NCBI GenBank assembly: GCA_035913415.1
Contig: JAMIIV010000247.1
Coordinates: 16,551-80,550, forward strand
DNA from: Fibrobacteria bacterium
Lineage (GTDB): Bacteria; Fibrobacterota; Fibrobacteria; UBA5070
Reading direction: 5' to 3'
Length of the DNA: 64,000 bases
Positions 6,121-60,562 of the stretch are shown here, piece after piece; the first letter of the stretch is position 1; each line of letters opens with the position of its first letter. A program made the translations under genes and the position numbers. The notes under the pieces were generated by a model. The model was not told the DNA's origin, did not search any database, and was given only the letters and a program-made list of their open reading frames with translations.

Positions 6121-6145
6121 CGCCTATCCACACCGGGAGTTCCAT

Positions 6146-8999: not shown

Positions 9000-9066
9000 G
9001 ACTCGCCCACCGCGCAACCTTCGTGAAACAGGTCCGCACTAGACTTTCAGTAAGCGACACCCTATA

Positions 9067-9084
9067 TTTCGATATATGGCGAAA
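9067..9084 (+). promoter_or_regulatory. Putative ArsR operator
   Basis: TTTCG-N8-CGAAA in an AT-rich patch overlapping the start of the second arsR. Confidence 0.5.
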
Positions 9085-20215: not shown

Positions 20216-20781
20216 CAGAAACCTCCCTGAAGGCGTGTGGACCGGGGCAAGGCCATCACACGACCAGCCCGATCGAGGAAGAAGCAGTCCAGCCCGATGG
20301 GGTACGACGCGTTGGTCGCGCGCAGCCGTGCCCACTCTCCCGGCACGACCCCGTCCACACGAGGTGTTCGCTTATCCAGGATTCCCGGTCCGGTCCAGGT
20401 GACGTCGCCGCCATCTTCGCCGAGATTCTCGACCAGATAAACCAGGGTGGCGGATTCGTCAGGCCAGTCAGGCGACCCCATGCGCACCATGGGAAGACAT
20501 TCGGCGGCGGAACCACCACCGATCACGATCCAGCTCGCCTGTCCGAGACCCACCAGTGCGCAGCCCGACGCCCGGGCGAGGCGCGCCACCAGTTCGTCTT
20601 CCTGCGCCCGCATAGCGCACAGGGACGTCTCCGAATCCAGCACGGCACGCACCAGCATTTCGAGCGCCCCGTCGCGACCGTGCGCCTCGGGAGCCAGCTC
20701 GTGAATGGATCCGGGCCGCGCCATGGCTTGCAGCAAGGCGCGAAACGCGACGTGTTCTTCGATCGTTCTTGCGGAATCCAC
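20215..20781 (-). CDS. phnH: C-P lyase subunit PhnH
   Basis: FRALLQAMARPG...LD.ET...G....PDESATL...TGPGI...YPIGLD...ALPRST. Confidence 0.92.
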   Translation of the reverse strand: MDSARTIEEHVAFRALLQAMARPGSIHELAPEAHGRDGALEMLVRAVLDSETSLCAMRAQEDELVARLARASGCALVGLGQASWIVIGGGSAAECLPMVRMGSPDWPDESATLVYLVENLGEDGGDVTWTGPGILDKRTPRVDGVVPGEWARLRATNASYPIGLDCFFLDRAGRVMALPRSTRLQGGF

Positions 20782-20784
20782 GGT

Positions 20785-21207
20785 TCAGGCTCCCGGCATG
20801 AGGTCGAATTCGACCCGCGTGGAATCGACGAGCAGCGCCTCGTCCCGTCGGCGCTCGACGATGCGCCCCCGCGCCTGGGCCATGAGCTCCAGGACCGCCA
20901 AGGCGTCGGGATCCGTGTCGTGGTTCTCGGAGAAGACATCGACGGCCGCCGCGACCAAGGCCCGGCGCTCGTCGCCTCCCACCACCAGTCCGTACCCTTC
21001 GCGTCCACGCCAACGCACCAAGGCTTCGGCGGCGTGCACCTCGCCCAGATGGAAACGTCCCCCCAGGGATTCCAGACAGGTCATAAGGACCAGGCCTTCC
21101 CGCGGCACGCGGACCAGTTCGAGGTCTTCCGGGATCCTCTCGAGCATGCGCGAGACGATCTCCTCGTCGGCTTCGGCCAACGTTTCCCAGATTCCCGGTT
21201 CACGCAC
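20785..21207 (-). CDS. phnG: C-P lyase subunit PhnG
   Basis: GLVLM......GGRFHLGEV...EALV; C-terminal STRVEF. Confidence 0.9.
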   Translation of the reverse strand: MREPGIWETLAEADEEIVSRMLERIPEDLELVRVPREGLVLMTCLESLGGRFHLGEVHAAEALVRWRGREGYGLVVGGDERRALVAAAVDVFSENHDTDPDALAVLELMAQARGRIVERRRDEALLVDSTRVEFDLMPGA

Positions 21208-26506: not shown

Positions 26507-26523
26507 GGATGTATATTACACCC
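26507..26523. promoter_or_regulatory. GGATGY-N5-RCATCC-type operator, site A
   Basis: GGATGTATATTACACCC, 39 bp upstream of the NifB/X-like gene. Confidence 0.65.
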
Positions 26524-26561: not shown

Positions 26562-26924
26562 ATGAAAATCGCCATTCCCACCTCCGGACACGATCTCGAC
26601 GCCCCGTTGGATGGCCGCTTGGGGCGTGCCGAGCGCTTCCTGGTGATCGACGCCACCGACCTGACCTGGGAAGTGGTGGACAACACCGCCCAATCCCAGG
26701 CCAGTCAAGGTGCGGGCATCCAGGCGGCCCAGGCGCTGATCAAGGCCGGTGCCACCCGCGTGATCGCCACCCATTGCGGGCCGAAGGCATTCGCCATGTT
26801 CCAGGCCGCGGGAGTGGAGGTGTACCAAAGCGATGCGGGCCGACTACGGGGCATCCTGGAGGCATTCCTGACCGGGGGACTGCCACGTTTGAGCGGACCC
26901 GACCATCCCGGCCACGCCGCGTGA
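26562..26924 (+). CDS. NifB/NifX-family (dinitrogenase FeMo-cofactor-binding domain) protein
   Basis: MKIAIPT.G...GRLGRA..FL...N.A....GAGIQAAQ...HCGPKAF. Confidence 0.88.
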   Translation: MKIAIPTSGHDLDAPLDGRLGRAERFLVIDATDLTWEVVDNTAQSQASQGAGIQAAQALIKAGATRVIATHCGPKAFAMFQAAGVEVYQSDAGRLRGILEAFLTGGLPRLSGPDHPGHAA

Positions 26925-27781
26925 GGATCGCGGTCGCCTCCGGCAAAGGGGGAACGGGAAAGACCACCGTTTCCATCGCCTTGGCGCTGGCCAACCGCGA
27001 CCGTGTCCGCCTGGTGGACTGCGATGTCGAGGAGCCCAACGCCCATCTGTTCCTGCCCGGGCGGGAAGTCGCCACCACCGAGGTCACAGCCTCCGTCCCT
27101 CGCGTGGACCCTTCGCTTTGCACGCAATGCGGCCTCTGCGTCGATTTCTGTCAATACAACGCGCTGGCCGTGGCCGGACCCGCGGGCTTGATGGTCTTTC
27201 CCGAACTCTGCCACGACTGCGGAGGCTGCGTCCTGGTCTGCCCGCAGCATGCCTTGAGCGCATCCCCCGTCGCTCGCGGTACGGTCACGACCACCCTTCA
27301 CGATGCCACCCTTGAATTGGTCACCGGAAGACTGGCGGTGGGAAGTCCTTCGGCGCCCACGGTGATCCGCGCCACCATCCGAACCGCCCCCCTGCACGCT
27401 CGCCCCGTGGAGATCCTGGACGCTCCTCCCGGTACGGCCTGTTCCTTCGCCACCACGGTCCAAGCCGCCGACTTCTGCCTGTTCGTCACCGACCCCACTC
27501 CGTTCGGCTTGCATGACATGCGCCTGGCGCTCGAGGCCATCCGTGGCATGGGGCTTCCGTGCGCGGCGGTCGTGAATCGCTCCACCGGACTGGATGATCT
27601 GGCCGCTTCCACCTGCGCCGAGCTGGGTCTGCCCATCCTCCTGCGCATTCCCGAGAGCCGGACCATCGCCGAGGCCTACGCCCGCGGCGGAACCCTCCTG
27701 GGCACGGATCCCACCTGGAAGGACCGGCTGCGGACCCTGTTCGACACCATCGTCGCCTCGACCTCCTGGACTTCCCCATGA
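26921..27781 (+). CDS. MinD/CbiA-like P-loop ATPase with inserted 2x[4Fe-4S] ferredoxin domain
   Basis: ASGKGGTGKTT, DCDVEEPN, CTQCGLCVDFC / CHDCGGCVLVCP, DAPPGTAC. Confidence 0.9.
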   Translation: MRIAVASGKGGTGKTTVSIALALANRDRVRLVDCDVEEPNAHLFLPGREVATTEVTASVPRVDPSLCTQCGLCVDFCQYNALAVAGPAGLMVFPELCHDCGGCVLVCPQHALSASPVARGTVTTTLHDATLELVTGRLAVGSPSAPTVIRATIRTAPLHARPVEILDAPPGTACSFATTVQAADFCLFVTDPTPFGLHDMRLALEAIRGMGLPCAAVVNRSTGLDDLAASTCAELGLPILLRIPESRTIAEAYARGGTLLGTDPTWKDRLRTLFDTIVASTSWTSP

Positions 27782-28662
27782 ACGCACCCCTGGAACTCGT
27801 CGTCCTCAGTGGAAAAGGCGGCACCGGCAAGACGTCCCTCACTGCGGCCTTCGCCATGTTCGCCAACAACACCATCGTCGCCGACGGAGACGTGGACGCG
27901 GCCAACCTCCACCTGCTTCTGGATCCCACCCCTAGACGCACCGGAGAGTTCGTCGGCGGGCACGAAGCGTCCATTCGCACCGCCGACTGCACCTCGTGCG
28001 GCAAGTGCATCGAGCTGTGCCGCTTCGGCGCCATCGAGGAGGTCGACGGATGGCCGACCATCACCCATTGCGAAGGATGCGGCGTCTGTGTCGCATTCTG
28101 TCCAAGCGGAGCGATCGACTGGACACCCGCCACGACCGGATCCTGGATGGTCTCCGACAGTCGGGCGGGGATCCTGGTGCATGCGCGCTTGCGACCGGGC
28201 GCCGAAAATTCGGGAAAACTGGTCGCCATGGTCCGCGACCTGGCGCGCGAGGAAGCCACGAAGTCCCATGCCGGCACCATCCTGGTCGACGGGCCTCCCG
28301 GGATCGGCTGTCCGGCCATCGCATCCCTCTCCGGGACCCACGCCGCCGTGATCGTCACCGAGCCCACCCCTTCGGGTATCCACGACCTGCAGCGGGTACT
28401 CGACCTGTGCGCGCATTTTCGCGTACGTGCCGGGATCGTGGTCAACAAGGCCGACCTCAACAACGATGCGACCACGACCATCGGCGTGCTGGCGACCGAG
28501 CGGGGCCTTCCGCTTCTGGGAACCCTGCCGTACGACCCCCTGTTCACCGACGCGCAGAGGGCCGGACTCCCGGTGCCGCTTTTCCAACCGAACCATTCGC
28601 TGACCGCACGCCTCCAAACCCTCTGGACGGCCGTCGAAACCTGGAGCCGAACACCCCGATGA
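27778..28662 (+). CDS. Second P-loop ATPase with 4Fe-4S ferredoxin domain
   Basis: LSGKGGTGKTS, DVDAANLHL, CTSCGKCIELC, CEGCGVC..FCP, DGPPGIGCP. Confidence 0.9.
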   Translation: MNAPLELVVLSGKGGTGKTSLTAAFAMFANNTIVADGDVDAANLHLLLDPTPRRTGEFVGGHEASIRTADCTSCGKCIELCRFGAIEEVDGWPTITHCEGCGVCVAFCPSGAIDWTPATTGSWMVSDSRAGILVHARLRPGAENSGKLVAMVRDLAREEATKSHAGTILVDGPPGIGCPAIASLSGTHAAVIVTEPTPSGIHDLQRVLDLCAHFRVRAGIVVNKADLNNDATTTIGVLATERGLPLLGTLPYDPLFTDAQRAGLPVPLFQPNHSLTARLQTLWTAVETWSRTPR

Positions 28663-29558
28663 AGCACGCGCCCCTTCCTCCTGCCTGCCACCCCTGCATC
28701 TTGCGCCAGGCCCTCCGGACAGCCCAGATCACCGGACTCGACGAGGTCGACCAGTCCCGCGTTCTGCGCACCGTCCACGATGCCCTGGCATCGGAGGGCA
28801 ACCACCCCACCACAGCCCAGCACATCGGTCGCAACGTGGCAGACCAAGCCTTGCTTCTGGGAGGCCTCCCCCCCGAGCACGACCCGTACCTCGAACTGAA
28901 ACGGCGCTCCAACCGGCTGGCGCTGTCGTGTGTGCCCGCCCTGCGGCAACGCATCCGCCAGGAATCCGATCCCCTGGCCGCGGCGTTGCGCGTCGCGGCG
29001 GCGGGCAACATCATCGATTTCGGCGCCAAGGACCACGGGGACCTCGATCTGGAGCGCGAGCTGAACGGGCTGTGGACCCAGCCCTTCGGGCGCTTCGACC
29101 TCGAATCCTTCCGCCAGCGGCTCGGCTCGGCCAACGAGATGCTCTACATCTGCGACAACGCCGGCGAGATCGTGTTCGACCAGCTCCTGATGGAAACGCT
29201 TCTGGCCATCCGACCAACCCTGCGCATCCACGCCGCACTTCGCGAAATGCCGATCATCAACGACGCCACCCTGGCCGACGGCCGCGAAATCGGCCTGGAC
29301 CGGCAGGCACACCTGCTCTCCAGCGGGAGCCGGGTCGCTGGCACGTTCCTGGACGAGACCACTGCGGAATTCCAATCCCTGTTCGCCCGTGCCGACATCG
29401 TCGTGAGCAAGGGGCAGGGAAATTTCGGCACGCTTCAGCGAAACAGCGATCCTCGCGTCTTCTTCATCCTGCGCGTGAAGTGCGCCCCCGTCGCCGCGAC
29501 CACGAAACACCCCCTGGACAGCCTCCTCGTGCTCCAGGGCACAACCTCCCGGATCTGA
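28659..29558 (+). CDS. DUF89/ARMT1-like damage-control phosphatase
   Basis: C.PCILRQ, AAAGNIIDFG, CDNAGEIVFD, PIINDAT, SKGQGNF. Confidence 0.9.
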   Translation: MKHAPLPPACHPCILRQALRTAQITGLDEVDQSRVLRTVHDALASEGNHPTTAQHIGRNVADQALLLGGLPPEHDPYLELKRRSNRLALSCVPALRQRIRQESDPLAAALRVAAAGNIIDFGAKDHGDLDLERELNGLWTQPFGRFDLESFRQRLGSANEMLYICDNAGEIVFDQLLMETLLAIRPTLRIHAALREMPIINDATLADGREIGLDRQAHLLSSGSRVAGTFLDETTAEFQSLFARADIVVSKGQGNFGTLQRNSDPRVFFILRVKCAPVAATTKHPLDSLLVLQGTTSRI

Positions 29559-29561
29559 ACC

Positions 29562-30719
29562 ATGCACCAGGAATCCTCGTACTCCCCTCTGGCTCTCGAC
29601 CACGCCCGAAACCCGCGGCACATGGCGCCCCTGTCGGAATTCGACGGATACGCAAGCCTCACGGGACCTTGCGGCGACACGATGGACTTCTGGATCCGCG
29701 TCGCCGACGGCGTGGCGACGGAAGTCGGCTTCACGACCGACGGCTGCGGGTCTTCCCGGGCGGCCGGCTCCATGACCTGCACCCTGGCGCGAGGTCGCCA
29801 TCTGGCCGCGTTGGGACTGATCGGGCAACGGGATGTCCTGGAAGCCCTCGGCGATTTCCCGTCCGAATCGGAACACTGCGCGCTACTGGCCACCGAGACC
29901 TTGCACGCGGCCGTGCGGGAATGTTTCCAGACCATGCGCGTGCGGCGCATCGATCGCAAGTACCTAGTCCTGGGAGGGAAGGGAGGCGTGGGCAAAAGCA
30001 CCATCGCGGCGAACCTCGCGCTGCTGTTGCGCGATCGTGGCCTGCGCACCGGACTACTCGACGCCGACATCCACGGCCCGAGCGTCCCCGCCATGACGGG
30101 GACGGAATCCGTCGAGCCGGAGCGATCCGACGACGCGCTGCGACCGGCGGAGATCCACGGTATCCGCGCCGTATCCATCGGGATGTTCCTGCCCCAACCC
30201 GACCAGGCTCTCGCCTGGAGAGGCCCCCGCAAAAGCAACATCGTGCGCCAGTTCCTTCGCGAGGTGGATTGGGGCGACCTCGACGTCCTCGTCATCGACG
30301 CGCCCCCGGGGACGGGCGACGAACTCCTGACGATCGCCCGTTCCGCCGGTCCCCTGGACGGGGCGATCGTGGTCACCACTCCGCAACGCATCGCCGCCAT
30401 CGACGTTCGCCGCGCCGTCACGTTCTGTCGCGACATGGGGATACCCGTCCTGGGGATCCTGGTGAATATGGCGGGACTTGTCTGCCCCCATTGCGGCGAG
30501 ACCACCCGCCTGTTCCCCGACGGCCCGGGCCTTGCCATCGCCTCCGACATGGGGATCCCCTTCCTGGGTTCCCTCCCCTTCGATCCGGAACTGTCCATTG
30601 CATCCGACACGGGTTCGCCCCTGGTCGCCTCCGCGCCCGAAAGCGAGACGGCCCGAAGGCTGCGCGATCTCCTGGAGCCCATCCTTTCGCACGCTGTTGG
30701 CGGAATTCCCGCGCGCTAA
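29562..30719 (+). CDS. IscU/NifU-N domain fused to Mrp/NBP35 (ApbC) Fe-S carrier ATPase
   Basis: N-terminal GPCGDTM, DGCG and EHCA (IscU Cys); C-terminal GKGGVGKST, DAPPGTGD, NMAG..CPHC. Confidence 0.87.
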   Translation: MHQESSYSPLALDHARNPRHMAPLSEFDGYASLTGPCGDTMDFWIRVADGVATEVGFTTDGCGSSRAAGSMTCTLARGRHLAALGLIGQRDVLEALGDFPSESEHCALLATETLHAAVRECFQTMRVRRIDRKYLVLGGKGGVGKSTIAANLALLLRDRGLRTGLLDADIHGPSVPAMTGTESVEPERSDDALRPAEIHGIRAVSIGMFLPQPDQALAWRGPRKSNIVRQFLREVDWGDLDVLVIDAPPGTGDELLTIARSAGPLDGAIVVTTPQRIAAIDVRRAVTFCRDMGIPVLGILVNMAGLVCPHCGETTRLFPDGPGLAIASDMGIPFLGSLPFDPELSIASDTGSPLVASAPESETARRLRDLLEPILSHAVGGIPAR

Positions 30720-32189: not shown

Positions 32190-32206
32190 AGATGTATTCT
32201 ACATCC
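32190..32206. promoter_or_regulatory. GGATGY-N5-RCATCC-type operator, site B
   Basis: AGATGTATTCTACATCC in the divergent gap between the 4Fe-4S gene and bioB. Confidence 0.7.
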
Positions 32207-37145: not shown

Positions 37146-37162
37146 GGATGCTCATTGCATCC
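37146..37162. promoter_or_regulatory. GGATGY-N5-RCATCC-type operator, site C
   Basis: GGATGCTCATTGCATCC in the divergent gap between the peroxiredoxin and DUF1847 genes. Confidence 0.72.
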
Positions 37163-37789: not shown

Positions 37790-37811
37790 CCATTAGGTGT
37801 TTATGACATCC
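37785..37811 (+). promoter_or_regulatory. TGTAACC element plus operator site D
   Basis: TGTAACC-att-AGGTGTTTATGACATCC upstream of the Acr3-like gene. Confidence 0.62.
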
Positions 37812-38839: not shown

Positions 38840-39694
38840 TCAGTCGGGGAAATGCAGCACTTTCCCCACGCGCCCCGGCTCGCAACCGATCTCGCGTGAA
38901 GTCTGCTTTGTTTGCCATCCCGCCGCCGCCAGCCGCCAAGCCGCCGAAGGACCACTGCAGTGGCAGGGCACCACGCACCCGACACCTGCCGCGCCAAGCT
39001 GCTCGGCCATGAGCTTGATCTCGGTGTCCGGAGCGCTCTCCAGATGGAGTCCACCGACCAAGGAACGCAACGGGCGGCCCGGGAAGAAACGTCCCAGGAA
39101 TCCCAGCAGGTTGGCGATCCCGAAATGGGCGCAGCCCACAACCACGACCAGTCCCTCGCGAGTATCCAGGACCAGCGCCTGCTCCTCGGGAACATCGTCG
39201 GGAATGTCCATGATCTCGTTGCGCACCAGACCCTTGTGCGTCCATGCCGGACGGATTCCGCCCACCGGTCCGGTCAGCCAGATTCCGTCCGCAATCTGGA
39301 CGGGTCCGGACGTTTCCGCCCAACGCGTGCGTTCCACCACCAGCCTCTCCCGCACGGGATGCTGCAGGGCAATGTCGCGGGTACCGTCTTCCCCGCGGTG
39401 CCAGCGGGGCATCAGGGCTCCCTGCGGGATCCAGACGCGGGCCGCGGGGGCCTGGTCCATCGCGGCCAGGAGCCCTCCGCCGTGATCCCAGTGGCCATGG
39501 CTCAGGACGATGTCCGTGGCCGTCGCCAGATCGATGCCCAGTTGCTCCGTGTTGGCGCGCAGCACGAATCCTTCCGCCCCGGTGTCGAACAGGACACGGC
39601 TTCCTGCGTGTTCGCACCACACGGAAAAGCCGTGCTGCGCCAGAAGTCCGCGGTCGCGAACGGTGTTGTCGATCAGAAGCGTAAGCGTGGGCAT
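38840..39694 (-). CDS. MBL-fold metallo-hydrolase
   Basis: QHGFS, LFDTG, LSHGHWDHGGG, GCAHFG, GGLHL, PCHCSG. Confidence 0.88.
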   Translation of the reverse strand: MPTLTLLIDNTVRDRGLLAQHGFSVWCEHAGSRVLFDTGAEGFVLRANTEQLGIDLATATDIVLSHGHWDHGGGLLAAMDQAPAARVWIPQGALMPRWHRGEDGTRDIALQHPVRERLVVERTRWAETSGPVQIADGIWLTGPVGGIRPAWTHKGLVRNEIMDIPDDVPEEQALVLDTREGLVVVVGCAHFGIANLLGFLGRFFPGRPLRSLVGGLHLESAPDTEIKLMAEQLGAAGVGCVVPCHCSGPSAAWRLAAAGWQTKQTSREIGCEPGRVGKVLHFPD

Positions 39695-39701
39695 GAGGTG
39701 C

Positions 39702-40124
39702 TCAGCGACCGCAGGTGCAGACGTGGCCTTCGCCGTGGTGGTGGCCGTGTTCGTGGTCGGTGTCGTCGTCATGGCCGTGGCACAGGCTCTCACCCGGGGC
39801 GAGCTCGCGTGCTTCCGCCAGACCCGCAAGGAACAATTCCAGCACCTTGGCCGGATTTTCCTCGCGGATGCCCGCCATCACTTTCACTCCGGCCTTCCCC
39901 AGACCATTGGCGGCACCGGCACCCAGTCCACCGGCCAGCAGCACTTCGACACCCTGAGCCGCAACCCACGGAGCCGCGCTGCAGGTGCCTTCGGGGGGAA
40001 TCGACCGCAGTCCGAGGTCCGTGGCGGTGCCCGCATCAAGGTCGATGTCGTGCAGGGACAAGGCCTGGGAACGGCCATAGTGGAGGGCGAATTTTCCGTC
40101 GGCGATGGGAAGGGCGATACGCAT
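39702..40124 (-). CDS. NifB/NifX-family protein with His/Cys-rich tail
   Basis: MRIALP....FALHYGRS...GGLGAGA..L; tail CHGHDDDTDHEHGHHHGEGHVCTC. Confidence 0.82.
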   Translation of the reverse strand: MRIALPIADGKFALHYGRSQALSLHDIDLDAGTATDLGLRSIPPEGTCSAAPWVAAQGVEVLLAGGLGAGAANGLGKAGVKVMAGIREENPAKVLELFLAGLAEARELAPGESLCHGHDDDTDHEHGHHHGEGHVCTCGR

Positions 40125-40173: not shown

Positions 40174-40190
40174 GGATGCTATCTACATCC
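40174..40190. promoter_or_regulatory. GGATGY-N5-RCATCC-type operator, site E
   Basis: GGATGCTATCTACATCC, 50 bp upstream of the NifX-like gene. Confidence 0.7.
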
Positions 40191-40569: not shown

Positions 40570-41145
40570 ATGGCCGAACTCAAGGGTTCCCGCACCGAGA
40601 AGCATCTGCTCATGTCGTTCGCCGGCGAATCGCAGGCGCGCAACCGCTACACCATGTTCGCCGGCGCGGCGCGCAAGGAAGGTCTCGAGCAGATCGCCGG
40701 CATCTTCGAAGAGACCGCCAACCAGGAGAAGGAGCATGCCAAGCGGTTCTTCTCGTTCCTGAAGGGCGGCGACCTCGAAATCACCGCCACCTTCCCCGCC
40801 GGCAAGGTGGGCACCACCCTCGAGAACCTCGAGGCTTCGGCCATGGGCGAGGAGCACGAGTGGCAGATCGACTATCCCGAGTTCGCACGCATCGCCCGTG
40901 AAGAGGGATTCGAAGCCATCGCGCGGGTGTGGGACGCCGTCTCCGTGGCCGAGAAGCAGCACGGCAAGCGCTACCGCGACCTGTGGAAGAATCTGTCGGA
41001 AGGCAAGGTATTCAAGCGCGACGGCAAGATCGTCTGGCGCTGCATCAACTGCGGCTACCTGCACGAGGCCGAAGAAGCCCCCAAGGTCTGCCCGGCCTGC
41101 GCACACGCCCAGTCGTACTTCGAGCTGCTCGGCGAGAACTGGTAA
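40570..41145 (+). CDS. rbr: Rubrerythrin
   Basis: FAGESQARNRY, EKEHAKR, EKQH..RY, WRCINCGY.H...P..CPACAH. Confidence 0.95.
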   Translation: MAELKGSRTEKHLLMSFAGESQARNRYTMFAGAARKEGLEQIAGIFEETANQEKEHAKRFFSFLKGGDLEITATFPAGKVGTTLENLEASAMGEEHEWQIDYPEFARIAREEGFEAIARVWDAVSVAEKQHGKRYRDLWKNLSEGKVFKRDGKIVWRCINCGYLHEAEEAPKVCPACAHAQSYFELLGENW

Positions 41146-41223
41146 GAATCACGGCGCGGCGGGTTGCCGTCGCGCCGCCCCTGCGCGGAGCGGAAACCCC
41201 GCGATAGAGCTTGGCGATCGGTT

Positions 41224-41265
41224 GGTTTCGACACGCTCGACCACCGATCGACAGGCTCGATCACG
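41224..41265. repeat. Two REP half-sites in tandem
   Basis: ggtttcgacacgctcgaccaccg (41224-41246) followed by tcgacaggctcgatcacg; same unit as 14587-14609. Confidence 0.65.
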
Positions 41266-41280
41266 GATCGGATGGACCGT

Positions 41281-41706
41281 TCAGATGACGGCGCGCCCTT
41301 CGCGGACAAATTCCGTCAACCCAGACGCGAGAGATTCCAGCAGATCGACCCACTCCACCAGGTGTTCGCGGCCCCGCTCGGTGAGCCGGTACGACTTGCG
41401 CCCCGCGCCCCGGGCCGATTCGGTCCATTCCGAGACCGTCATGCCGTTGCGTTCCAGAACGCACAGGGTGCGGTAGACGGCCGCTTTGTCGATGGTGGTG
41501 CCGGTGAGGGTGTGCCCCTGCAGTCGCTGCAGGATGTCGTACCCGGAAGCCCCGGGATGCTGGCTCACGTCCAGCAGGAGCAGGGGCTCGACGAAACGGA
41601 ACAGATTCCCCATGCCGCACGCGCACGGGGTGTCGCCGTGGCGGGGGCAATGGCGCTGGGAGCGGACCTCCTCGATGGACTTCGCGACGGCTTTGGGCAT
41701 GACCAT
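41281..41706 (-). CDS. PadR-family transcriptional regulator with Cys/His-rich N-terminus
   Basis: GYDILQRL...VYRTL..LE..G.....W......G..RK.YRLT..G; N-terminal HCPRHGDTPCACG. Confidence 0.88.
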   Translation of the reverse strand: MVMPKAVAKSIEEVRSQRHCPRHGDTPCACGMGNLFRFVEPLLLLDVSQHPGASGYDILQRLQGHTLTGTTIDKAAVYRTLCVLERNGMTVSEWTESARGAGRKSYRLTERGREHLVEWVDLLESLASGLTEFVREGRAVI

Positions 41707-41763
41707 CAGAATACTACCTCACCGCCGGGGATGCGGCGACGATTCGCGCCCTGACCAAGACTC

Positions 41764-42993
41764 TCAGCCTGCGGCGGGAGACGCGCTCCGCTCGACCATC
41801 CGCGAAACGTTCCACATCAGCGGAAGGGTGATGAGCATCGCCAGGGTGACCACCATGCCCAGGGAGTCGTAGCGCTGCAGCGGCGCGTGTTCGGAGGTCT
41901 GGACCACGATCAGACCCGCCACCCAGGCCGCCACGCCGCCCGAGACCTGCTGGATGGAGGCGTTGATGGACATGTAGGCGCCGCGGTCGCGTAGCTCGGG
42001 CACACCCGAAGCGATGGCCGAGGCCGTCACGATCCGTCCGTTGATGGCCACGAACAGGAGGATGTTGATCAGCACGACTTGCCACAGGGGCGTCACGCCC
42101 AGCCGGGTGTAGAACAGCACCAGGGCGACGGTGGCCAGACTGGAGACGAAGAACACGGGGATCTTGCCGATCTGGTCGGCCAACCGCCCCAAGTAGGGGC
42201 CAGCCAGGATGGAGGCCACGCCCGTGGCGACGTACACCACCGGAAGGGATTCCAGGGGGATGCCCAGATTCTGCACACTGAAGGCGCTGCCGAAGGGCAT
42301 GAGCATGTAGCCGCCCGTGGCCAGCAGAATGGTGGCGGAAAAGCCCATCAGGTGGCGGGGTTTGGAGGCCACGCGCCACAGGTGCCGAAGCGGGTGTGTG
42401 GTGTGGGCGTGCTGGAGATGGGAGTCCAGAGGCTTTAGATGCACAAACGCCACCACCCCGCCGAGGAAGGCGATACCGGCGATGGCCAGGAACGGAACGT
42501 GCCAACCGCCATGGGTGGCCAGCACCAGGCCCAGCGGAATGCCCGCGATCTGGCTGGCCGCAAACGCCGTCTGGACGATGCCCATCGCCCGACCCCGCAT
42601 GTGCATGGGAAACACGTCGGCAAGAATGGCGAAGCTGATGGATCCCACCACGCCTCCGAACAGCCCGGTGACGATGCGGGCCACCAGCAACGTGGGGTAG
42701 TCGGGTGCAACCCCGCAGAAGATGGTGCCGGCCACAAAACCCGTGTAGAAGACCAGCAGCAGCTTCTTGCGATCGAAACGATCGGCGAATCCGGCCGTCA
42801 GGAAGCCCGACAATCCCGCGCTGAAGGCATACGCGCTGACCACCAGGCCGAACTGTTTGGTGGAGATGCTCAACTCGTGCAGGAGGATCGCCCCCAGCGG
42901 CGAGAGGATCATGAAGTCCACGACGACGCAGAACTGCAAGAACGCGAGCAGCCCTACGACGAACCACTGATAACGAGTAAACGACTGCGACAC
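41764..42993 (-). CDS. MFS transporter
   Basis: GFADRFDRKK motif A, about 12 TM segments; GTG start at 42993 with AAGGA RBS. Confidence 0.9.
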   Translation of the reverse strand: MSQSFTRYQWFVVGLLAFLQFCVVVDFMILSPLGAILLHELSISTKQFGLVVSAYAFSAGLSGFLTAGFADRFDRKKLLLVFYTGFVAGTIFCGVAPDYPTLLVARIVTGLFGGVVGSISFAILADVFPMHMRGRAMGIVQTAFAASQIAGIPLGLVLATHGGWHVPFLAIAGIAFLGGVVAFVHLKPLDSHLQHAHTTHPLRHLWRVASKPRHLMGFSATILLATGGYMLMPFGSAFSVQNLGIPLESLPVVYVATGVASILAGPYLGRLADQIGKIPVFFVSSLATVALVLFYTRLGVTPLWQVVLINILLFVAINGRIVTASAIASGVPELRDRGAYMSINASIQQVSGGVAAWVAGLIVVQTSEHAPLQRYDSLGMVVTLAMLITLPLMWNVSRMVERSASPAAG

Positions 42994-43110
42994 GAGCGAT
43001 CCTTCCGACGGATGCGCGGGGACCCTCACGATAGCTAATCCCCCGCCCCCGTGGCGCTCGGGGGGCCAAGACCTGTGCCGCTTCGACATTCATCCAGGGG
43101 TGGAGTCGGT

Positions 43111-43166
43111 CCGGTTGTCGAGCTTGTCGAGACCCACGCGGCGGTCTCGACAGGCTCGACCACCGG
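43111..43166. repeat. REP-like inverted repeat
   Basis: ccggttgtcgagcttgtcgagacc-N8-ggtctcgacaggctcgaccaccgg; near-identical to 14555-14609. Confidence 0.85.
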
Positions 43167-43216
43167 GGAGTCTGCTCGCCCCTGCAAAACAGACTCGACC
43201 ACCGGATGACCGCACA

Positions 43217-44572
43217 TCAAACGGGCAAATTCCGACTTTCTTTACGACCCTGGATCGGATCCTCCTCCAGGTACGCTCCGATGCCCAGCTCCAGGAGGTC
43301 CCGCGAGGGACGGCAGTCGGTCGAGCAGATCTCGCCGGTGCGGTTGCGCGCCACCGAAGTGCATCCGCCGCCGCAGGCCAGCGCCTGGGCGCATCCACGG
43401 CACTCCTCCATGGAGGCGGTGTCGCGCCTCTGCCATTGGTGTACCACATCTTTTTCCAGACGCACCTCGGGCCAGTAGGTGCCCAGCTCCTCGCCGGGTT
43501 TGCCCACGGTGGCCGTGCAAGCGAAGATGTTGCCCCGGTAGTCGAAGGCCCACTCCGTCTTGGTGCCCGTGCAGGCGTCGAACAGCGGCTTGGGCAGTTC
43601 GCCGTGCTCCCACAGGAACTTCGAGACCGAGAACGCCGGGCGGTGGTATTCCAGGAACTCGGGATGCTCGCGCACCAGCGTGTGGAGATCTTCGGCCAGC
43701 TCCATGCGCGAATACAGGTCGCCCCCGCCGCCGGCGGCGTGGCAGGAGTGCAGCTCGTAGTTGCGCCCCAACTGGGTCTTGAAGCGAGGATTGGCGGTCC
43801 AGCCGCGCTCGGCCGCGATGCGCGCCAGTTCCGGCAGGTGCGACAGATTCTGGCGATCGACCACCGAACGCAGGTTCACCACGTGGCCGGCCGCCAGCGC
43901 CGCGTCGATGCCGTCGGCGATGCGCGCGAAGGTGGGCGCGCCCCCCGCCAGCACACGACGACGGTCGTGGGTCTGGGGCGGGCCGTCGAGCGTGACCTGG
44001 ATCTCGCGGATACGCGCCAGCGCCAAGGTGTCCATGTACTCGACCAGGGAATGCCCGTTGGTGACCACCGCGACCTCAAGCCCCGCGGCCGCGGCCCGGC
44101 GCAGAAATCCCGCGATCCGTTCGCGTGCGGCCTCGCCGGGCAACAGCGGCTCGCCCCCGAAGAGGGTCAGGTACTTGCGCCGACCCGCGAACTCGCGGCG
44201 CACGTGTGCGAAGAACGCGTCCAGGATGTCGTCGGTCAGGCTGGCGGGCTTGACGCCGTAGTCGTCCTGGAAACAGTAGTCGCACCGGAAATTGCACCCG
44301 TACCACGGCACGAAGAAGATCTGGACCTCGTCGGACTCGCGCGCGTCGAGAAAATCCAGGTAGGCGCGTTTCCAGCGTTTCTGCTCGTCGACAGGATCCG
44401 TCCAATAGCCTTTGGCGGCCCATTCCTCGGGCTGTTCGGGCGGGATACCCGCCAGCAGCGGGGCGGCCGTGGCCTCGTCGAGGAGGTCGGCGTTGCCGGA
44501 GAGGAGGTTCACGACGAAGGGGGTCCCCGCGGGGCGCGTCCTGCCGACGATGTTGTGTTTGGACCATTCCAT
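43217..44572 (-). CDS. Radical SAM/SPASM-domain peptide maturase-like enzyme
   Basis: GCNFRCDYC (CxxxCxxC), TLFGGEPLL, VTNG; C-terminal C...AC...CRGC....ACGGGC...C...C SPASM pattern; about 80-aa N-terminal extension (SKHN...VNLLSG) like the RRE region of peptide maturases. Confidence 0.9.
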   Translation of the reverse strand: MEWSKHNIVGRTRPAGTPFVVNLLSGNADLLDEATAAPLLAGIPPEQPEEWAAKGYWTDPVDEQKRWKRAYLDFLDARESDEVQIFFVPWYGCNFRCDYCFQDDYGVKPASLTDDILDAFFAHVRREFAGRRKYLTLFGGEPLLPGEAARERIAGFLRRAAAAGLEVAVVTNGHSLVEYMDTLALARIREIQVTLDGPPQTHDRRRVLAGGAPTFARIADGIDAALAAGHVVNLRSVVDRQNLSHLPELARIAAERGWTANPRFKTQLGRNYELHSCHAAGGGGDLYSRMELAEDLHTLVREHPEFLEYHRPAFSVSKFLWEHGELPKPLFDACTGTKTEWAFDYRGNIFACTATVGKPGEELGTYWPEVRLEKDVVHQWQRRDTASMEECRGCAQALACGGGCTSVARNRTGEICSTDCRPSRDLLELGIGAYLEEDPIQGRKESRNLPV

Positions 44573-44594
44573 GTTGGCTTCGCCTTATTGTTTT

Positions 44595-45345
44595 CAGGGG
44601 CTGCCGCCCCAGGTGACCCTGCTCTTTTCTCTTGGTTGCCCAGGGGCTGTCTGCCCCTGGTAACCCCGACCGGGGCTTCTCCCAGCCCCTGGACCCCAGG
44701 GCCAAGGCGGGCCGTCTGGCCGGCCCCCTTGGAACCCCGGCCACCAGGGACGCTGCGCTCCCTGGACCCTAGGCATTTGCTTGACGAATCTTCGAGGCTT
44801 GCGGCTGTATTGGCCTTTGTGGGAGTGTCGAGGTTTCGGCCGGCTGACGGTGGCGAGGCGCCACCTGGGCCGGCATCGCGGCATCGCAGCATGGTGACAT
44901 GGTGACTTGGTGACTTGGTGACAGGGCGGTATCGTTGCGAGGGAGGTTTTGCGATTGTGGTCGGATTTTCAGGCATTCCCTCTAACCGCCGCTCTTCCCA
45001 CCTCCCCCGACACACCACGCCATTGCGCTTTGCTTCCCGGCGTGGCGGCGTTTCGCCGCCTTGGCCGGGCCCTGACCTTGGTGGCTGGCACGAACGGACA
45101 TCCGTAGCGGGACTCCGCGGCGGGGTCCCGGGGATGCCCAATCCCCGGGTGCCCGGGATCCCCAAGGGGCCGGGCACTCGGCCTCCTTGGGTCCTGGGGG
45201 TCACGGGGGCTGGAAGAAGCCCCCGTGGGAACCCAGGCCCGGGAAGGGCCAAATGGGAATCGAGGCTGGAAGCCAAAGGGGTGCAAGGGGCGGAGCCCCG
45301 TGAAACCCAAACCGGGGTCCAGGGGCGGAAAGCCCCTGGGCGCCC
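44595..45345. repeat. Hairpin-rich non-coding block bounded by inverted GGGGTCCAGGGG units
   Basis: cccctggacccc (44686-44697) versus ggggtccagggg (45314-45325); several GGGGC-N-GCCCC hairpins; internal 4x WTGGTGAC at 44891-44922. Confidence 0.6.
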
Positions 45346-45356
45346 CGGGCCGGGGG

Positions 45357-45449
45357 TCAGTCGTGGCAGCCGGCCACCAGGGTCGAGACCTTGGCGCAGC
45401 ACTGGGCCACGGGAGCGCAGCAGTTCTTCTTGTGGATCAGAGTCTTCAT
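45357..45449 (-). CDS. 30-aa Cys-rich peptide MKTLIHKKNCCAPVAQCCAKVSTLVAGCHD (candidate RiPP precursor or metalloid-binding peptide)
   Basis: AAGGA RBS 7 nt upstream of the ATG; 28/30 codons end in G/C as in host genes; lies between the ArsM-like gene and the rSAM/SPASM gene on the same strand. Confidence 0.82.
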   Translation of the reverse strand: MKTLIHKKNCCAPVAQCCAKVSTLVAGCHD

Positions 45450-45490
45450 GTCGTTTCCTTTCTGGGTTGAATGGATTGCGGGATCTAGGC

Positions 45491-46141
45491 TCATCCGCCG
45501 CAACAGCAGCGGGCCTTGGGCTTCCACCCTTGGAGGGTGAAGCTCGAGACTTCGATACGGCCCTTCGGATAGGGCTGCGAGCGTTCGAGGATGTCGAGGT
45601 CGCGCAGGCCTGCGTCGGAAACCGTCTGCAGGTAGACCTCCAGCGTGTCGGCTCCGGCCCAGCATTCGGCCACGGCCTCGGGGTCGTTGCGGAACTCCGG
45701 AGGTACGGGGGCGCTGGCGAAGATGTCCGAGACCACGAAGCGCCCACCGGGCTTGAGCACGCGGAAGACCTCGGCCCAAACCTTCGACTTGTCCGCGGCG
45801 TGGTTCAGGACGCAGTTGGAGATCACCAGATCGACCGACGCAGGCGGAATGGGAAGGTTTTCCAGAGCGGCTTTGTCGAAACGCACGTTGGTGATACCCA
45901 GCGCCTCGGCGGTGGAGCGCGCCTTGTCCAACATGCCGTCGGAGATGTCGATGCCCCAAACGAATCCGTCAGAACCCACCTCTTCGGCCATGCGCAGGCA
46001 ATCGGTACCTCGGCCCGATCCCAGGTCCAGGCAGACCTCACCGGGTTTGGGCTTGGCGTGGTCGACCGCCCCTCCGCACGAGAGGCAGCAAGCGCTTTCG
46101 GCCAATTCGGAATAGCGGTTTTCGATCGCGGTCGTATCCAT
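45491..46141 (-). CDS. ArsM-like SAM-dependent methyltransferase (compact)
   Basis: CCLSCGG, LDLGSGRG.D, VISNCVLNH..DK, AECWAGA, C-terminal CCCGG; GAGGAG RBS. Confidence 0.85.
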   Translation of the reverse strand: MDTTAIENRYSELAESACCLSCGGAVDHAKPKPGEVCLDLGSGRGTDCLRMAEEVGSDGFVWGIDISDGMLDKARSTAEALGITNVRFDKAALENLPIPPASVDLVISNCVLNHAADKSKVWAEVFRVLKPGGRFVVSDIFASAPVPPEFRNDPEAVAECWAGADTLEVYLQTVSDAGLRDLDILERSQPYPKGRIEVSSFTLQGWKPKARCCCGG

Positions 46142-46198
46142 CCGGTCTCCTCGTGCGGGGTGAGGCACTCCGGCCCTTGACCCCGTCTATGGAGAAAA

Positions 46199-46225
46199 GG
46201 ATGCCATTTTCATCCAAAGGTTACA
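46199..46225 (-). promoter_or_regulatory. Operator site F plus GGTTACA element upstream of the methyltransferase-peptide-rSAM cluster
   Basis: GGATGCCATTTTCATCC-aaa-GGTTACA. Confidence 0.65.
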
Positions 46226-46469
46226 CGCTCTGGTGGCGCATCCGGGATTTCTGCCGCGCCAAGGACACGGCACTTGCCGCCTTTGGTGTCCATGGCGCCA
46301 TCAGGGACCAGGGGGACGCTGGGACGAGCGTTTTCCGATCGGGTGACCTCCGCGTCAAAGGGCGGGGAAGGCGACAACCGAACGTCCGGGCAGGAGATCG
46401 CCAGACTCCAAACCCAACACGCTACGGCCCCGCACCCCTTCGCCTCAGCGTTCCGCCCCCGTCAGGCTC

Positions 46470-57734: not shown

Positions 57735-60254
57735 TCAGACGAACAGGTTGATTCCCGAGGTGCCGGCCGCTTCCAGGTAGGCCGCGACACCGCCAATCTC
57801 CACGGCCTCGATGAGCTCTTCGCGCCCCACGCCCATGAGTTCCATCGACATCTGGCAGGCGGTCATCTTCACCCCGCCGCGCACGGCATTGTCCATCATG
57901 GTCTCCAGGCGGTCCACCTGGAAGGCCTCCATGCGCTTTTTCATCAAAAGCGACCCGATGCCCCCGAAGTTCATGCGGGACAAGCCCAGGCGGTCGGCGT
58001 GGCGCGGCAGCATCAGATCGAACATGCGCCCCATCAGATCCTTGCGCACCGCAACCTTTTCGCGCCGGCGCACCACCGACAGTCCCCAGAAGGTGAAGAA
58101 CATCGTGACCTTCTTGCCCGTGGCCAAGGCGCCGTTGGCGATCACGAAACTCGCCAAGGCCCGATCCAGATCGTTGGAGAACACGATCAGCGTGACCTCG
58201 TCACCGGAGACCTGCAGTGCGTGCCCCGCGCCCGCGACCGCGGGCAGGGCCGCACGCCCCTGCCGTTTTTCGACCGTGGCCGACCAATCTCCACCCGCTT
58301 CCTTGACGCCCAGAAGATGGTGCCCCGTGATGTTGCACCAGGCCTGCACATCGCGCGCGAATCCAGGGTCGGAGGCCCGCACCACCACCCTGCCGTGCAG
58401 GGGAGCGGTATCGACGGCCTCCTTGAGTTTGAGGATGGGTCCCGGGCACTGCAGTCCGCAGGCGTCCACCCGAATCTCCACGACTTCGCCGTGCGGCAAT
58501 CCCTCCGGGGCTCCTGTCCCTTCGGAGGTGCCCGCCTCGACATCCGAGGGCTCATGGGCCCGGCGCAAGGCGGGGCGGAATTCCCCCGGGTTGTCCTGGG
58601 GGTCGGTCGCGGCCTTCCAGGTCTTCCAGCCGCCGGTGACGTTGCCCACCTTCGTCCAGCCGTTCTGGCGCAGGATGCGCTCGGCCAACCACCCGCGGAT
58701 GCCCACCCCGCAGTAGAGCACCACATCGCGGTCCTTGGGAATTTCGGCCAACCGCCCGCGCAACTCCGTATTGGAGATGTTCGTCGCGCCGGGGATGTGT
58801 CCGAGTTCGAATTCCTCGGACGTTCGCACGTCCAGGAGGAACGCGCCGGCCTCCACGCGCGGCGCGACCTCGTGCCATCGAACAATTTCCGTCAACCCTT
58901 CGCGTTCGTTGGCCGCCACGAAGGCCGCGTAGTTGGTGCCATCCTTGGCGCTGGCGAAGGGCGGCGCGTAGGCGTGCTCGAACTCGGCCAGGTCCTCGAC
59001 CGTGGCGCCCAACCCGATGTGCGCCGCCACCACGTCGATCCGTTTGTCCACGCCGTCGCGCCCCACCGCCTGGGCTCCCAGGATGCGTCCCGAAGCGGGA
59101 TCCCACACCAGTTTCAGCGCGTAGGGATGGGCTCCGGGATAGTACCCGGCATGGCTGCCCGGATGCACCACAGCCACATGGTGAGAAATGCCTTCGCGGC
59201 GGCACAACTTTTCGGACAATCCCGTGCAGGCCACCGTGAGGTCGAAGATCTTCGCCACGGCCGTGCCGATGGAACCCTTCCACGCACGCGGATGCTCCCC
59301 CACGATGTTCTCGGCGACGATGCGCGCCTGTTTGTTCGCCGGCCCGGCCAGGGGAACCGGCATGGGTTTTCCTGTCAGCGGACTGGTGGCCACGATAGCG
59401 TCGCCCACGGCCCAGATCCAAGGCACCGAGGTGCGCAGGTGGTCGTCGACCACGATGTAGCCGCGTTCATCGAGCGCGATCCCGGCCTCGCGGGCCAGGC
59501 GGGTGTCGGGTTTCACCCCGATGGACAGGATGACCAGGTCGGCGGCCAGTTTCGCCCCCGACTTCAGGTTCACCTGCAGCCGATCGGGTCCCAACGCGAC
59601 GAACTCCTGGACGCCGTCGGCCAGATGCAGCCCCACGCCTTTTTCGCGCAGATGGTGGTGCACGGGTGCGGCCATCTCGAAGTCGACCACCCCCATCACC
59701 TGATCCAGGGCCTCGACCACGGTCACGGCCAATCCGCGCTCCCATAGGTTCTCGGCCATCTCCAGGCCGATGAACCCCGCCCCCACCACCACGGCACGTT
59801 CGGGCCTGTGGGTGTCCAGGATCGCTTTCACCCGGTCGATGTCGGGCACCGACCGCACGGTCAGGATGCGGGGGTGGTCGATGCCCGCAATGGGCGGACG
59901 CAACGGTTCGGCTCCGGGCGAAAGCACCAGGGCGTCGCAGGACTCCTCCCGGATCTCCCCCGTGCGCCGGTCGAGCAGTTTCACAGTGCGCGCCGCGGCA
60001 TCGATCGCCACGGCCTCGGTTCCCACCCGCACATCGACATTGAGGGTTTCCCGGAACTTCGATGGGGTCATCAGGAACAGCTTGTCGCGCTCCTGGATGG
60101 TGCCACCGGCATAATAGGGCAGGCCGCAATTGGCGTAGCTGACGTGGTCTCCCCGCTCGACGAGCACGATCTCGGCCGTCTCATCCAACCGCCGAAGCCG
60201 GGCCGCCGTCGAGGCGCCTCCCGCCACTCCACCCACGATGACCACCTTGCGCAT
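57735..60254 (-). CDS. CoA-disulfide reductase-rhodanese-TusA(SirA)-DsrE2 multidomain flavoprotein
   Basis: GGVAGGAS, SYANCGLPY, HAGYYPG, YAPPF; LDVR...LYCGVG.RG (rhodanese); DACGLQCPGP (TusA); FFTFWG...ACQMSM (DsrE2). Confidence 0.93.
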   Translation of the reverse strand: MRKVVIVGGVAGGASTAARLRRLDETAEIVLVERGDHVSYANCGLPYYAGGTIQERDKLFLMTPSKFRETLNVDVRVGTEAVAIDAAARTVKLLDRRTGEIREESCDALVLSPGAEPLRPPIAGIDHPRILTVRSVPDIDRVKAILDTHRPERAVVVGAGFIGLEMAENLWERGLAVTVVEALDQVMGVVDFEMAAPVHHHLREKGVGLHLADGVQEFVALGPDRLQVNLKSGAKLAADLVILSIGVKPDTRLAREAGIALDERGYIVVDDHLRTSVPWIWAVGDAIVATSPLTGKPMPVPLAGPANKQARIVAENIVGEHPRAWKGSIGTAVAKIFDLTVACTGLSEKLCRREGISHHVAVVHPGSHAGYYPGAHPYALKLVWDPASGRILGAQAVGRDGVDKRIDVVAAHIGLGATVEDLAEFEHAYAPPFASAKDGTNYAAFVAANEREGLTEIVRWHEVAPRVEAGAFLLDVRTSEEFELGHIPGATNISNTELRGRLAEIPKDRDVVLYCGVGIRGWLAERILRQNGWTKVGNVTGGWKTWKAATDPQDNPGEFRPALRRAHEPSDVEAGTSEGTGAPEGLPHGEVVEIRVDACGLQCPGPILKLKEAVDTAPLHGRVVVRASDPGFARDVQAWCNITGHHLLGVKEAGGDWSATVEKRQGRAALPAVAGAGHALQVSGDEVTLIVFSNDLDRALASFVIANGALATGKKVTMFFTFWGLSVVRRREKVAVRKDLMGRMFDLMLPRHADRLGLSRMNFGGIGSLLMKKRMEAFQVDRLETMMDNAVRGGVKMTACQMSMELMGVGREELIEAVEIGGVAAYLEAAGTSGINLFV

Positions 60255-60331
60255 GCCCGCTCCTTGACGCCGAAATGAAAGGTCCATCCGCGCCAGGACC
60301 GGAAGGTCCGGGCGCTCCATTGCCCGAGATT

Positions 60332-60358
60332 GGATGTACGAGACATCGATAGGTTACA
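60332..60358 (-). promoter_or_regulatory. Operator site G plus GGTTACA element
   Basis: GGATGTACGAGACATCG-ata-GGTTACA upstream of the CoADR fusion. Confidence 0.62.
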
Positions 60359-60562
60359 CGCTTTCGCGAAGGATGGTATCCTCAGAGCTCAACTGGAGGC
60401 CCGCGCCGCCTCCCGACGCCCCCGTCCGAGAGAATGCCCGATGCCTCCCATCCCGCCGATGGTCCCGACGTCCGCCGCTCCCGAGGCTCCCCTTCGGAAC
60501 GCGCCTTCCACACTCCCCTCCCTCCACGACGCGCCATCCCGGCCGACGGCGGGGCCACGTCG

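Follow-up and report, generated by a model that had tools for sequence, protein, structure and literature searches.

A PadR-family regulator with a conserved N-terminal Cys3His motif, a short-spaced palindromic operator and a putative sulfur, iron-sulfur and peroxide regulon in Fibrobacterota

The PadR proteins known so far respond to phenolic acids, drugs and lipophilic compounds. In this study, we analyzed a PadR-family gene (41281-41706, minus strand) encoding a protein of 141 amino acids with a Cys/His-rich N-terminus, which an earlier sequence-only reading had put forward as a candidate sensor of the regulon. The gene lies in a stretch of 64,000 nucleotides, hereafter the window, from a Fibrobacteria bacterium (assembly GCA_035913415.1, contig JAMIIV010000247.1, positions 16,551 to 80,550). 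The operators described for PadR proteins are ATGT/ACAT inverted repeats with a canonical half-site spacing of 8-10 nt, and the motif G(P/R)RKYYx(L/I)TxxG in the wing is a feature of the family (PMC3506622). The persulfide sensors CstR, SqrR/BigR and FisR control genes of the rhodanese, TusA, DsrE, CoA-disulfide-reductase-rhodanese and sulfide:quinone reductase (SQR) kinds by means of Cys pairs or triads, and in CstR and SqrR/BigR a conserved Cys pair forms di- to tetrasulfide links upon persulfide treatment (PMC9774590). The Fibrobacteria protein has the fold of the PadR family, and the genes around it recall those of the persulfide sensors.

Sequence comparison and structural modelling together confirm that the gene product is a short-subfamily (s2) PadR. 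In a Pfam search of the 141-residue product, PF03551 (PadR) matched residues 53-116 with 50.2 bits, compared with a cut-off of 27 (E = 2.6e-13); the PadR-type models of NCBIfam all stayed below their thresholds, PhaQ being the best of them. The AlphaFold2 (AF2) model shows a winged helix-turn-helix core at residues 35-116 (41359-41604, minus strand; predicted local distance difference test score, pLDDT, above 90), with helices at 39-49 (35-49 in the first of two models), 55-62 and 74-86, a beta wing spanning 90-108 and, at 110-140, a single long helix at the C-terminus for dimerisation. The top Foldseek matches of this model were the PadR-s2 structures LftR (6abt), 5h20, LmrR and 2esh, with a TM-score (target) of at most 0.88. 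Residues 100-112 read G-A-G-R-K-S-Y-R-L-T-E-R-G, that is, the wing motif of the family, in which G100, T109 and G112 are invariant in the family alignment. The genome has just one other PadR protein, which is of the s1 type, lacks Cys and is encoded on a different contig. The protein shares with the PadR-s2 repressors (LmrR, BcPadR1/2, LftR, TM0937/2esh and PhaQ-like proteins) the Pfam family, the winged helix with a single dimerisation helix, the wing motif G-x-R-K-x-Y-x-L-T-x-x-G, an ATGT/ACAT-type inverted repeat at which dimeric binding is predicted, and the position of the gene inside its own putative regulon. However, it differs from them in a conserved N-terminal Cys3His module, in operator half-sites that are 5 rather than 8-10 nt apart, and in its predicted targets, which are sulfur-transfer, Fe-S and peroxide genes instead of a phenolic-acid decarboxylase or drug pumps. 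Except for one MFS gene, the window regulon bears no phenolic-acid or drug-pump signature.

The N-terminal module was read directly from the DNA. Positions 41605-41652 (minus strand) encode R18-H19-C20-P21-R22-H23-G24-D25-T26-P27-C28-A29-C30-G31-M32-G33, followed by N34 and then directly by helix alpha-1. Within this stretch, the motif C20-x-R22-H23-x4-C28-x-C30-x-M-G-N (Cys3His; 41605-41649, minus strand) is invariant in 10 of 10 family orthologues. The sequence-only reading had placed and spelled the stretch correctly, and the Cys/His core of its motif H-C-x2-H-x4-C-x-C stands; the first His (H19) has to be dropped, being replaced by I, V, F, P or A in the orthologues.

A word-indexed search returned 58 close homologues, from Fibrobacterota wherever the source was named, and these fell into two length classes: proteins of about 140-165 residues with the motif, and proteins of 110-120 residues that start exactly at M32. 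About two thirds of the clustered database homologues (P0019-P0057 among them) are annotated from this internal M-G-N and thereby lose the Cys3His motif. Such annotations favor the idea that translation starts at M32, that the extension is not made and that the motif is a chance feature of non-coding DNA, but we find this idea scarcely credible. In all the loci that we read, the open frame continues upstream of M32, and C-x-R-H-x4-C-x-C-x-M-G-N is encoded there in each of ten family genomes; one of these loci, L012, encodes the same protein as the 'short' entry P0021. At the eight invariant motif residues, comparison of nine orthologues with the window showed 28 synonymous and no non-synonymous codon differences, which indicates that the N-terminal extension is translated and under purifying selection. 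A Shine-Dalgarno-like word, GGTGAGG, precedes the ATG of the window gene, and the homologues from other phyla start 4-6 codons ahead of the first motif Cys. As judged from the DNA, the short class is an annotation artefact, namely a systematic start error of gene callers. Public database names of the homologues are generic.

The motif also extends well beyond Fibrobacterota. HMMER, run exhaustively against 1.84 billion representatives, returned 1084 matches, and many of the distant ones (33-52% identity) open with M-P-R-x-x-C-x-R-H-G-x3-P-C-[TS]-C-[AG]-M-G-N. In a scan of one genome per species, for which the pattern comprised C-x-C-x-M-G-N and not the upstream C-x2-H, 320 loci or species genomes held the family; most belong to Acidobacteriota (Bryobacteraceae, Terracidiphilus, Solibacter), and Armatimonadota are also represented. 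The upstream C-x2-H is likewise kept in 69 of 73 loci from outside Fibrobacterota, and the remaining four still have one Cys and one His there. An alignment of 77 sequences shows no variation at C20, H23, C28, C30, M32, G33 and N34 and very little at R22 and G24. The motif is therefore conserved in close and distant homologues alike, and the objection of non-conservation that the sequence-only reading had raised against itself does not apply. One Bryobacteraceae metagenome-assembled genome (L127) has two Cys3His PadR copies within 3 kb, at 6001 and 9174. In the wider PadR clade, 65 of 97 assessable representatives have C-x-C just ahead of helix alpha-1 and 32 have none; among the 65, an upstream Cys and His accompany the pair in 30, a Cys only in 11 and a His only in four, and C-x-C stands alone in 20. 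In some of these relatives a second Cys pair replaces the upstream Cys/His pair, which can be read as the behaviour of metal ligands. None of the Pfam models matched the first 40 residues of the protein, and a PDB sequence search found no solved PadR structure that covers the Cys3His stretch, all alignments beginning at residue 36 or later. With two different alignments, AF2 gave residues 1-35 a pLDDT of only 56-68; both models have a beta-bridge between residues 20 and 24, and a short helix occurs at 29-32 in the first model and at 33-36 in the second. At this low confidence the arrangement may be read as knuckle-like, and the low scores would be compatible with a fold that depends on a metal or a partner.

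To describe the operator, we built a position weight matrix (PWM) from 14 sites, all from Fibrobacterota (six in the window and eight in family genomes), and scanned the whole 4.77-Mb assembly with it. The operator is best described as a 7-3-7 palindrome, GGATGYA-N3-TRCATCC, and the sites are promoter-proximal, lying about 20-95 nt upstream of start codons. The five best hits of the genome (PWM 20.6-25.3) all fall within 26.5-46.2 kb of the window, in the 20 kb around the PadR gene. As the sequence-only reading had pointed out, the ATGY/RCAT half-sites are PadR-like. Their spacing, however, is not the canonical one of 8-10 nt: it is 5 nt in every site, around an A/T-rich centre.

We then considered whether PadR is the protein that reads these palindromes. 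Apart from PadR, no classical transcription factor is encoded inside the 20-kb site cluster; the genes for an ArsR protein at 5797 and an extracytoplasmic function (ECF) sigma factor at 56112 lie outside it. The PadR gene is directly followed by a NifX-like gene in seven of nine other family genomes, mostly together with a metallo-beta-lactamase (MBL) gene. A strong site (PWM 16.7-26.0) was found upstream of the NifX-like gene in all nine genomes that have this gene (eight relatives and the window), and where PadR precedes the NifX-like gene the site sits between the two, so that the conserved layout is PadR, then the site, then the NifX-like and MBL genes (9/9 genomes). In a relative assembled as a single 5.8-Mb contig (G282), the sole palindrome match with at most one mismatch lies 12 kb from PadR, and in another (G281) three of five such matches lie within 14 kb of it. 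In the other phyla, 31 of the 73 loci have a site 78-187 bp ahead of the PadR motif codon, compared with an expectation of at most about two, which was derived from the overall density of 71 PWM hits in 789 kb with the matrix trained only on Fibrobacterota. Fifty sites in these loci reached a PWM score of at least 15; 23 of them are upstream of PadR, and 41 lie within 250 bp upstream of some gene. Predicted sites placed in this way are the hallmark of a repressor that controls its own gene. In addition, the NifX1 orthologues of all five PadR-bearing family genomes have a site (PWM 19.8-27.2) located 38-58 nt ahead of the ATG, and only one of the five sites had been part of the PWM training set, whereas NifX1 orthologues from PadR-less Fibrobacterota families had no site in 25 of 25 cases, the best PWM score within 300 bp being 9.8. 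The clustering of the sites, their autoregulatory positions in other phyla and their co-occurrence with PadR agree with the earlier proposal that PadR reads the ATGY/RCAT palindromes, and we consider that the protein very probably binds the 7-3-7 operator.

Two further comparisons were set aside. Per-genome counts of palindromes with at most one mismatch across the phylum were dropped as a co-occurrence test, given that PadR-less families gave 0-8 matches, near the expectation from composition. The 'backward' control of these counts is suspected to be biased low, as words containing CTA/TAG are expected to be rare; the tally also took in one unpublished genome (G254), and no claim is based on it. 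The PadR-less family genomes G286 and G289 were likewise dropped as an independent test, in that their NifX-like and DUF1847 genes are gone too and the whole island is lost or absent.

The genes next to the operator sites outline the putative regulon. The site at 26507-26523 (PWM 24.1) lies 38 nt upstream of an operon (26562-30719) headed by a NifX-like gene and encoding, in addition, two Fer4-MinD ATPases, a DUF89 protein and an IscU-Mrp fusion. This operon resembles the orp (orange protein) clusters of Desulfovibrio, with which it shares the NifX-like protein, the paired Fer4-MinD ATPases and the Mrp-type carrier. The Desulfovibrio clusters are under the control of sigma-54 and DVU2106, with a sigma-54 promoter and an enhancer-binding protein, whereas a PadR palindrome stands ahead of the cluster here; sigma-54 activators nonetheless adjoin PadR in seven of the 73 distant loci. 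The highest-scoring site (32190-32206; PWM 25.3) is located between divergent genes, genes for a degenerate ATPase and TrmO on one side and, on the other, genes for BioB-like, HMGL and CoA-disulfide-reductase-like (CoADR)-rhodanese proteins. The site at 37146-37162 (PWM 20.8), with equivalents in the loci L015 and L016, separates a peroxiredoxin gene (minus strand) from genes for a DUF1847 protein and an SBF transporter (plus strand), and a weaker candidate (37795-37811; PWM 17.7) lies 33 nt upstream of the SBF transporter gene. At 40174-40190 (PWM 22.3), a site precedes by 49 nt the core target operon (38840-40124, minus strand), which is divergent to a rubrerythrin gene and comprises the PadR-paired NifX-like gene (39702-40124, minus strand), whose product has a His-rich tail ending in C-x-C, and a gene for a COG1237/TM1679-type MBL hydrolase. 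The MBL protein was considered as a persulfide dioxygenase and rejected, its relatives being TM1679, 2p4z and 7dck. A weaker site (60332-60348; PWM 16.5) lies between a gene for a CoADR flavoprotein fused to rhodanese, TusA and DsrE (57735-60320, minus strand; domains from Pfam) and a gene on the plus strand for a PAS histidine kinase/receiver hybrid (60434-62782). CoADR-rhodanese thus occurs twice under operator sites in the window. PAS hybrid kinases of a similar kind adjoin PadR in four distant loci (e.g., L073:5960-8584). PhnG and PhnH genes (C-P lyase components; 20215-21207, minus strand) lie upstream of the regulon block.

Similar genes accompany PadR in other phyla. Within 4.5 kb of PadR in the 73 loci, NifX-like small proteins occur in 25 loci and CoADR-rhodanese, DsrE and TusA proteins in 21, followed by 4HBT thioesterase-like (14), TrmO-like (12), orp-like ATPase (8), MBL (7), standalone rhodanese (6), peroxiredoxin (5) and ArsM-like (5) proteins. 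The CoADR-rhodanese, DsrE, TusA and standalone rhodanese proteins are conserved neighbours in three phyla. The NifX-like partners from three phyla (loci L059-L126) all have an HFGHC motif and a short Cys/His-rich C-terminal tail, and by their sequences look like metal or sulfur carriers. Outside the window, the genome encodes an SQR (contig C159:158309-159646, equivalent to L162:1810-3147) whose best PDB match is the Acidithiobacillus SQR (E = 1e-62). A candidate intergenic site, which is imperfect (PWM 17.8), lies 115 nt upstream of this gene, and a counterpart of this site (PWM 17.0) occurs in G283, the closest relative; SQR probably belongs to the regulon.

The PadR gene itself is the last of a co-directional run of ArsM-like, peptide, radical SAM (rSAM)/SPASM, MFS and PadR genes, and follows the MFS stop codon by 58 bp, a gap at which co-transcription with the MFS gene is plausible. 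An operator (46199-46215; PWM 20.6) lies upstream of the run. Both the site and the terminal position of PadR had been noted in the sequence-only reading, which had derived from them a possible autoregulation. As a conserved design this did not hold up: G283 has the same ArsM-peptide-rSAM cluster and no site there, and we rejected general autoregulation through the operator at 46199. By this comparison, the operator is a strain-specific recruitment. Only three family genomes have the ArsM-peptide-rSAM cluster, and most PadR loci are without it. The PWM scan found no site directly upstream of PadR in the source genome, and a promoter and terminator scan of 41000-46400 stayed at chance level. 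One 12-nt word (AGGTTACACGCT) recurs behind the sites at 46199 and 60332, at 46216-46229 and 60349-60362, respectively, and a related word (AGGTTACAC) occurs upstream of ArsM in G283, where there is no palindrome. The peptide between the ArsM-like and rSAM/SPASM genes (45357-45449, minus strand) is a Cys-rich product of 30 residues with 87-90% identity in G283 and G287, and a non-coding stretch of 784 bp (44573-45356) comes after its gene.

The explanation that we favor, at slightly less than even confidence, is that PadR is a repressor whose Cys3His tip senses reactive sulfur by means of a thiol or metal-thiolate switch. A PadR-s2 dimer would act as a repressor on the 7-3-7 palindromes overlapping the target promoters of a local regulon. 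This regulon would consist of the NifX-like carriers with Cys/His tails, the orp-like Fe-S ATPases, IscU-Mrp, the CoADR-rhodanese/TusA/DsrE proteins, peroxiredoxin, rubrerythrin and transporters, to which the source strain would add the ArsM-peptide-rSAM-MFS-PadR run. The Cys3His tip, immediately before helix alpha-1, would be the sensing element, in the form of a small Zn-type metal-thiolate knuckle or a trithiol site; of the possible metals, Zn appears most likely because of the span of 11 residues and because a Cys pair replaces the Cys/His pair in relatives. Modification of the tip cysteines by persulfides, polysulfides or related thiol oxidants would leave the tip disordered, lower the affinity for DNA and derepress the regulon. 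What the comparisons show is the family, the fold, the conserved motif and the operator with its ties to PadR and to the genes named; we infer repression (rather than activation), the metal bound, the nature of the signal and the coupling of the tip to DNA binding. That the tip is the sensing element we regard as likely, and the clade supports this view: because clade PadRs that lack Cys keep the same core fold, the tip appears to be a subgroup- and regulon-specific add-on, as expected of a sensor.

Judged by the genes of the regulon, the signal is probably either reactive sulfur or a metal. Reactive sulfur (or a thiol oxidant) on its own is a more tentative proposal, which we favor because the gene kinds in the regulon are those of the known persulfide sensors. 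CstR (CsoR family) and SqrR/BigR (ArsR family) also resemble the present system in having a conserved set of Cys and a repressor gene within the cluster, and their regulons contain rhodanese, TusA, DsrE, CoA-disulfide-reductase-rhodanese and, as is probable here, SQR. However, PadR has its own winged-helix fold and not a CsoR- or ArsR-type one, so it is not a member of these families; its three Cys and one His lie in one 11-residue stretch, whereas two distant Cys serve there; and the conserved core of its regulon is dominated by NifX-like and orp-like genes. The sequence-only reading had suggested a metal-, As(III)- or persulfide-sensing subtype, and of these options a signal of the thiol-reactive or persulfide type agrees with the regulon, and As(III) is the weakest. 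Several observations weigh against our explanation. A metal or metal-sulfur cofactor as the signal would account just as well for the most conserved targets (NifX-like proteins, orp-like Fe-S ATPases and IscU-Mrp). No gene for a persulfide dioxygenase turned up, the MBL hydrolase being TM1679-like, and the SQR site is present in only two of the four SQR-bearing family genomes, G280 and G287 having none. AF2 leaves the tip itself within its low-confidence region (residues 1-35), and a conserved His with three Cys could also be the look of a purely structural zinc site. Finally, the family genomes are close kin and co-occurrence within Fibrobacterota amounts to one evolutionary event; therefore, the independent weight of the co-occurrence comes from the other phyla.

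Two of these points lead to explanations of their own. The tip might report the occupancy of a metal or metal-sulfur cluster, as IscR does, with Cys3His holding Zn, Cu, Fe, an Fe-S cluster or a Mo/W-S cluster and with the loading, perhaps by way of the co-encoded NifX-like protein with its Cys/His tail, setting the affinity for DNA; the regulon would then serve cofactor assembly or repair. Cys3His ligation is the signature of the [2Fe-2S] sites of IscR and mitoNEET, and the small NifX-like protein is the best-conserved partner across all phyla, while orp-like Fer4-MinD ATPases, IscU-Mrp and BioB-like and rSAM enzymes stand under the same operator. The second Cys pair in related PadRs also suits a ligand site. 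However, the 11 residues that the ligands span are tight for an Fe-S cluster bound by one chain, and the sulfur-transfer and peroxide genes would require a second rationale. PadR is unnamed among the metal-sensor families in a review of metallostasis, which bears on novelty only. We regard this explanation as rather unlikely. Ligand sets of the Cys3His or C-x-C kind also serve cluster or zinc sensors elsewhere, as in IscR (Rrf2 family), in the ZAS motif of RsrA and in C-x-C...C-x2-C of Hsp33. IscR further resembles the present system in controlling Fe-S assembly genes. Nevertheless, PadR does not have the Rrf2 fold, it differs in fold from all three proteins, and the ligand spacing of its tip, known here from sequence alone, is much more compact. 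It is less likely still, and in our view improbable, that the tip is a structural zinc knuckle that, together with a basic N-terminal arm (M-P-R-R...), aids binding at the AT-rich operator centre, with a small-molecule effector occupying another place in the dimer, as it does in LmrR and PadR. The strong conservation of non-ligand residues (R22, G24, M32, G33, N34, R37 and F38), the basic N-terminus of most family members, the non-canonical N5 spacing with its A/T-rich centre and the knuckle-like AF2 bridge and helix are all in keeping with such a role. Against it, the 32 clade PadRs that do without any Cys there have the same core fold.

As for arsenic, the three conserved Cys could form an S3 site that binds As(III) or another metalloid and induces the ArsM-like methyltransferase cluster. 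The C-x-C pair among them resembles the CVC motif of ArsR, and the ArsM-like gene, whose product keeps all four ArsM Cys positions (198.6 bits, compared with the arsenite methyltransferase cut-off of 263), stands under the operator at 46199; the ArsM-like genes near PadR in five distant loci point in the same direction. However, the window has a separate, canonical-looking ars block at 5797-9866 (plus strand), with an ArsR-type helix-turn-helix gene (5797-6120; HTH_5, 8.5e-14), a thioredoxin-like gene (6414-6815), an unannotated open reading frame of 476 residues (7569-8999) and a low-molecular-weight phosphatase/ArsC-like gene (9186-9866). PadR does not have the ArsR/SmtB fold of the As(III) sensors, and none of its core targets is an arsenic gene. 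With 80 bits, compared with a cut-off of 283, the SBF transporter is no true ACR3. Given the block with its own ArsR, the sub-threshold SBF protein and the rarity of the ArsM cluster, which lacks the site in G283, an arsenic signal is very improbable, and As(III) sensing is the weakest of the options that the sequence-only reading had named.

The PadR family and fold are known. The Cys3His module, the short-spaced operator and the sulfur, Fe-S and peroxide regulon in three phyla, on the other hand, are undescribed in the searchable literature, in which, short of most subscription journals, we found no description of a PadR protein with persulfide or redox sensing, rhodanese/DsrE/TusA, a zinc finger, orange protein or NifX. 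A further proposal, which is more speculative than reactive-sulfur sensing as such, is that PadR and its NifX-like partner represent a new structural class of persulfide/polysulfide or metal-sulfur sensor. The flexible Cys/His tail of the NifX-like protein might relay sulfane sulfur or a metal-sulfur species to the Cys3His knuckle switch, and genes for sulfur trafficking and Fe-S repair might be under the control of the pair in at least 320 species genomes of Acidobacteriota, Armatimonadota and Fibrobacterota. The operator and four candidate ligand residues are defined precisely enough for immediate testing. For annotation, the finding means that M32 starts hide the motif in many database entries. 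The shared operator also offers a handle on genes of unknown role, such as those for NifX-like proteins, orp-like ATPases, DUF1847, DUF89 and TM1679-type MBL proteins, by linking them to one signal. If it does control sulfur-transfer, Fe-S and peroxide genes, the PadR branch with a Cys/His tip would join, as a new protein family, the short list of bacterial reactive-sulfur and metal sensors, which includes those of the CsoR, ArsR, sigma-54 and Rrf2 types. Cys3His PadR proteins are common in soil Acidobacteriota, whose regulation is poorly known.

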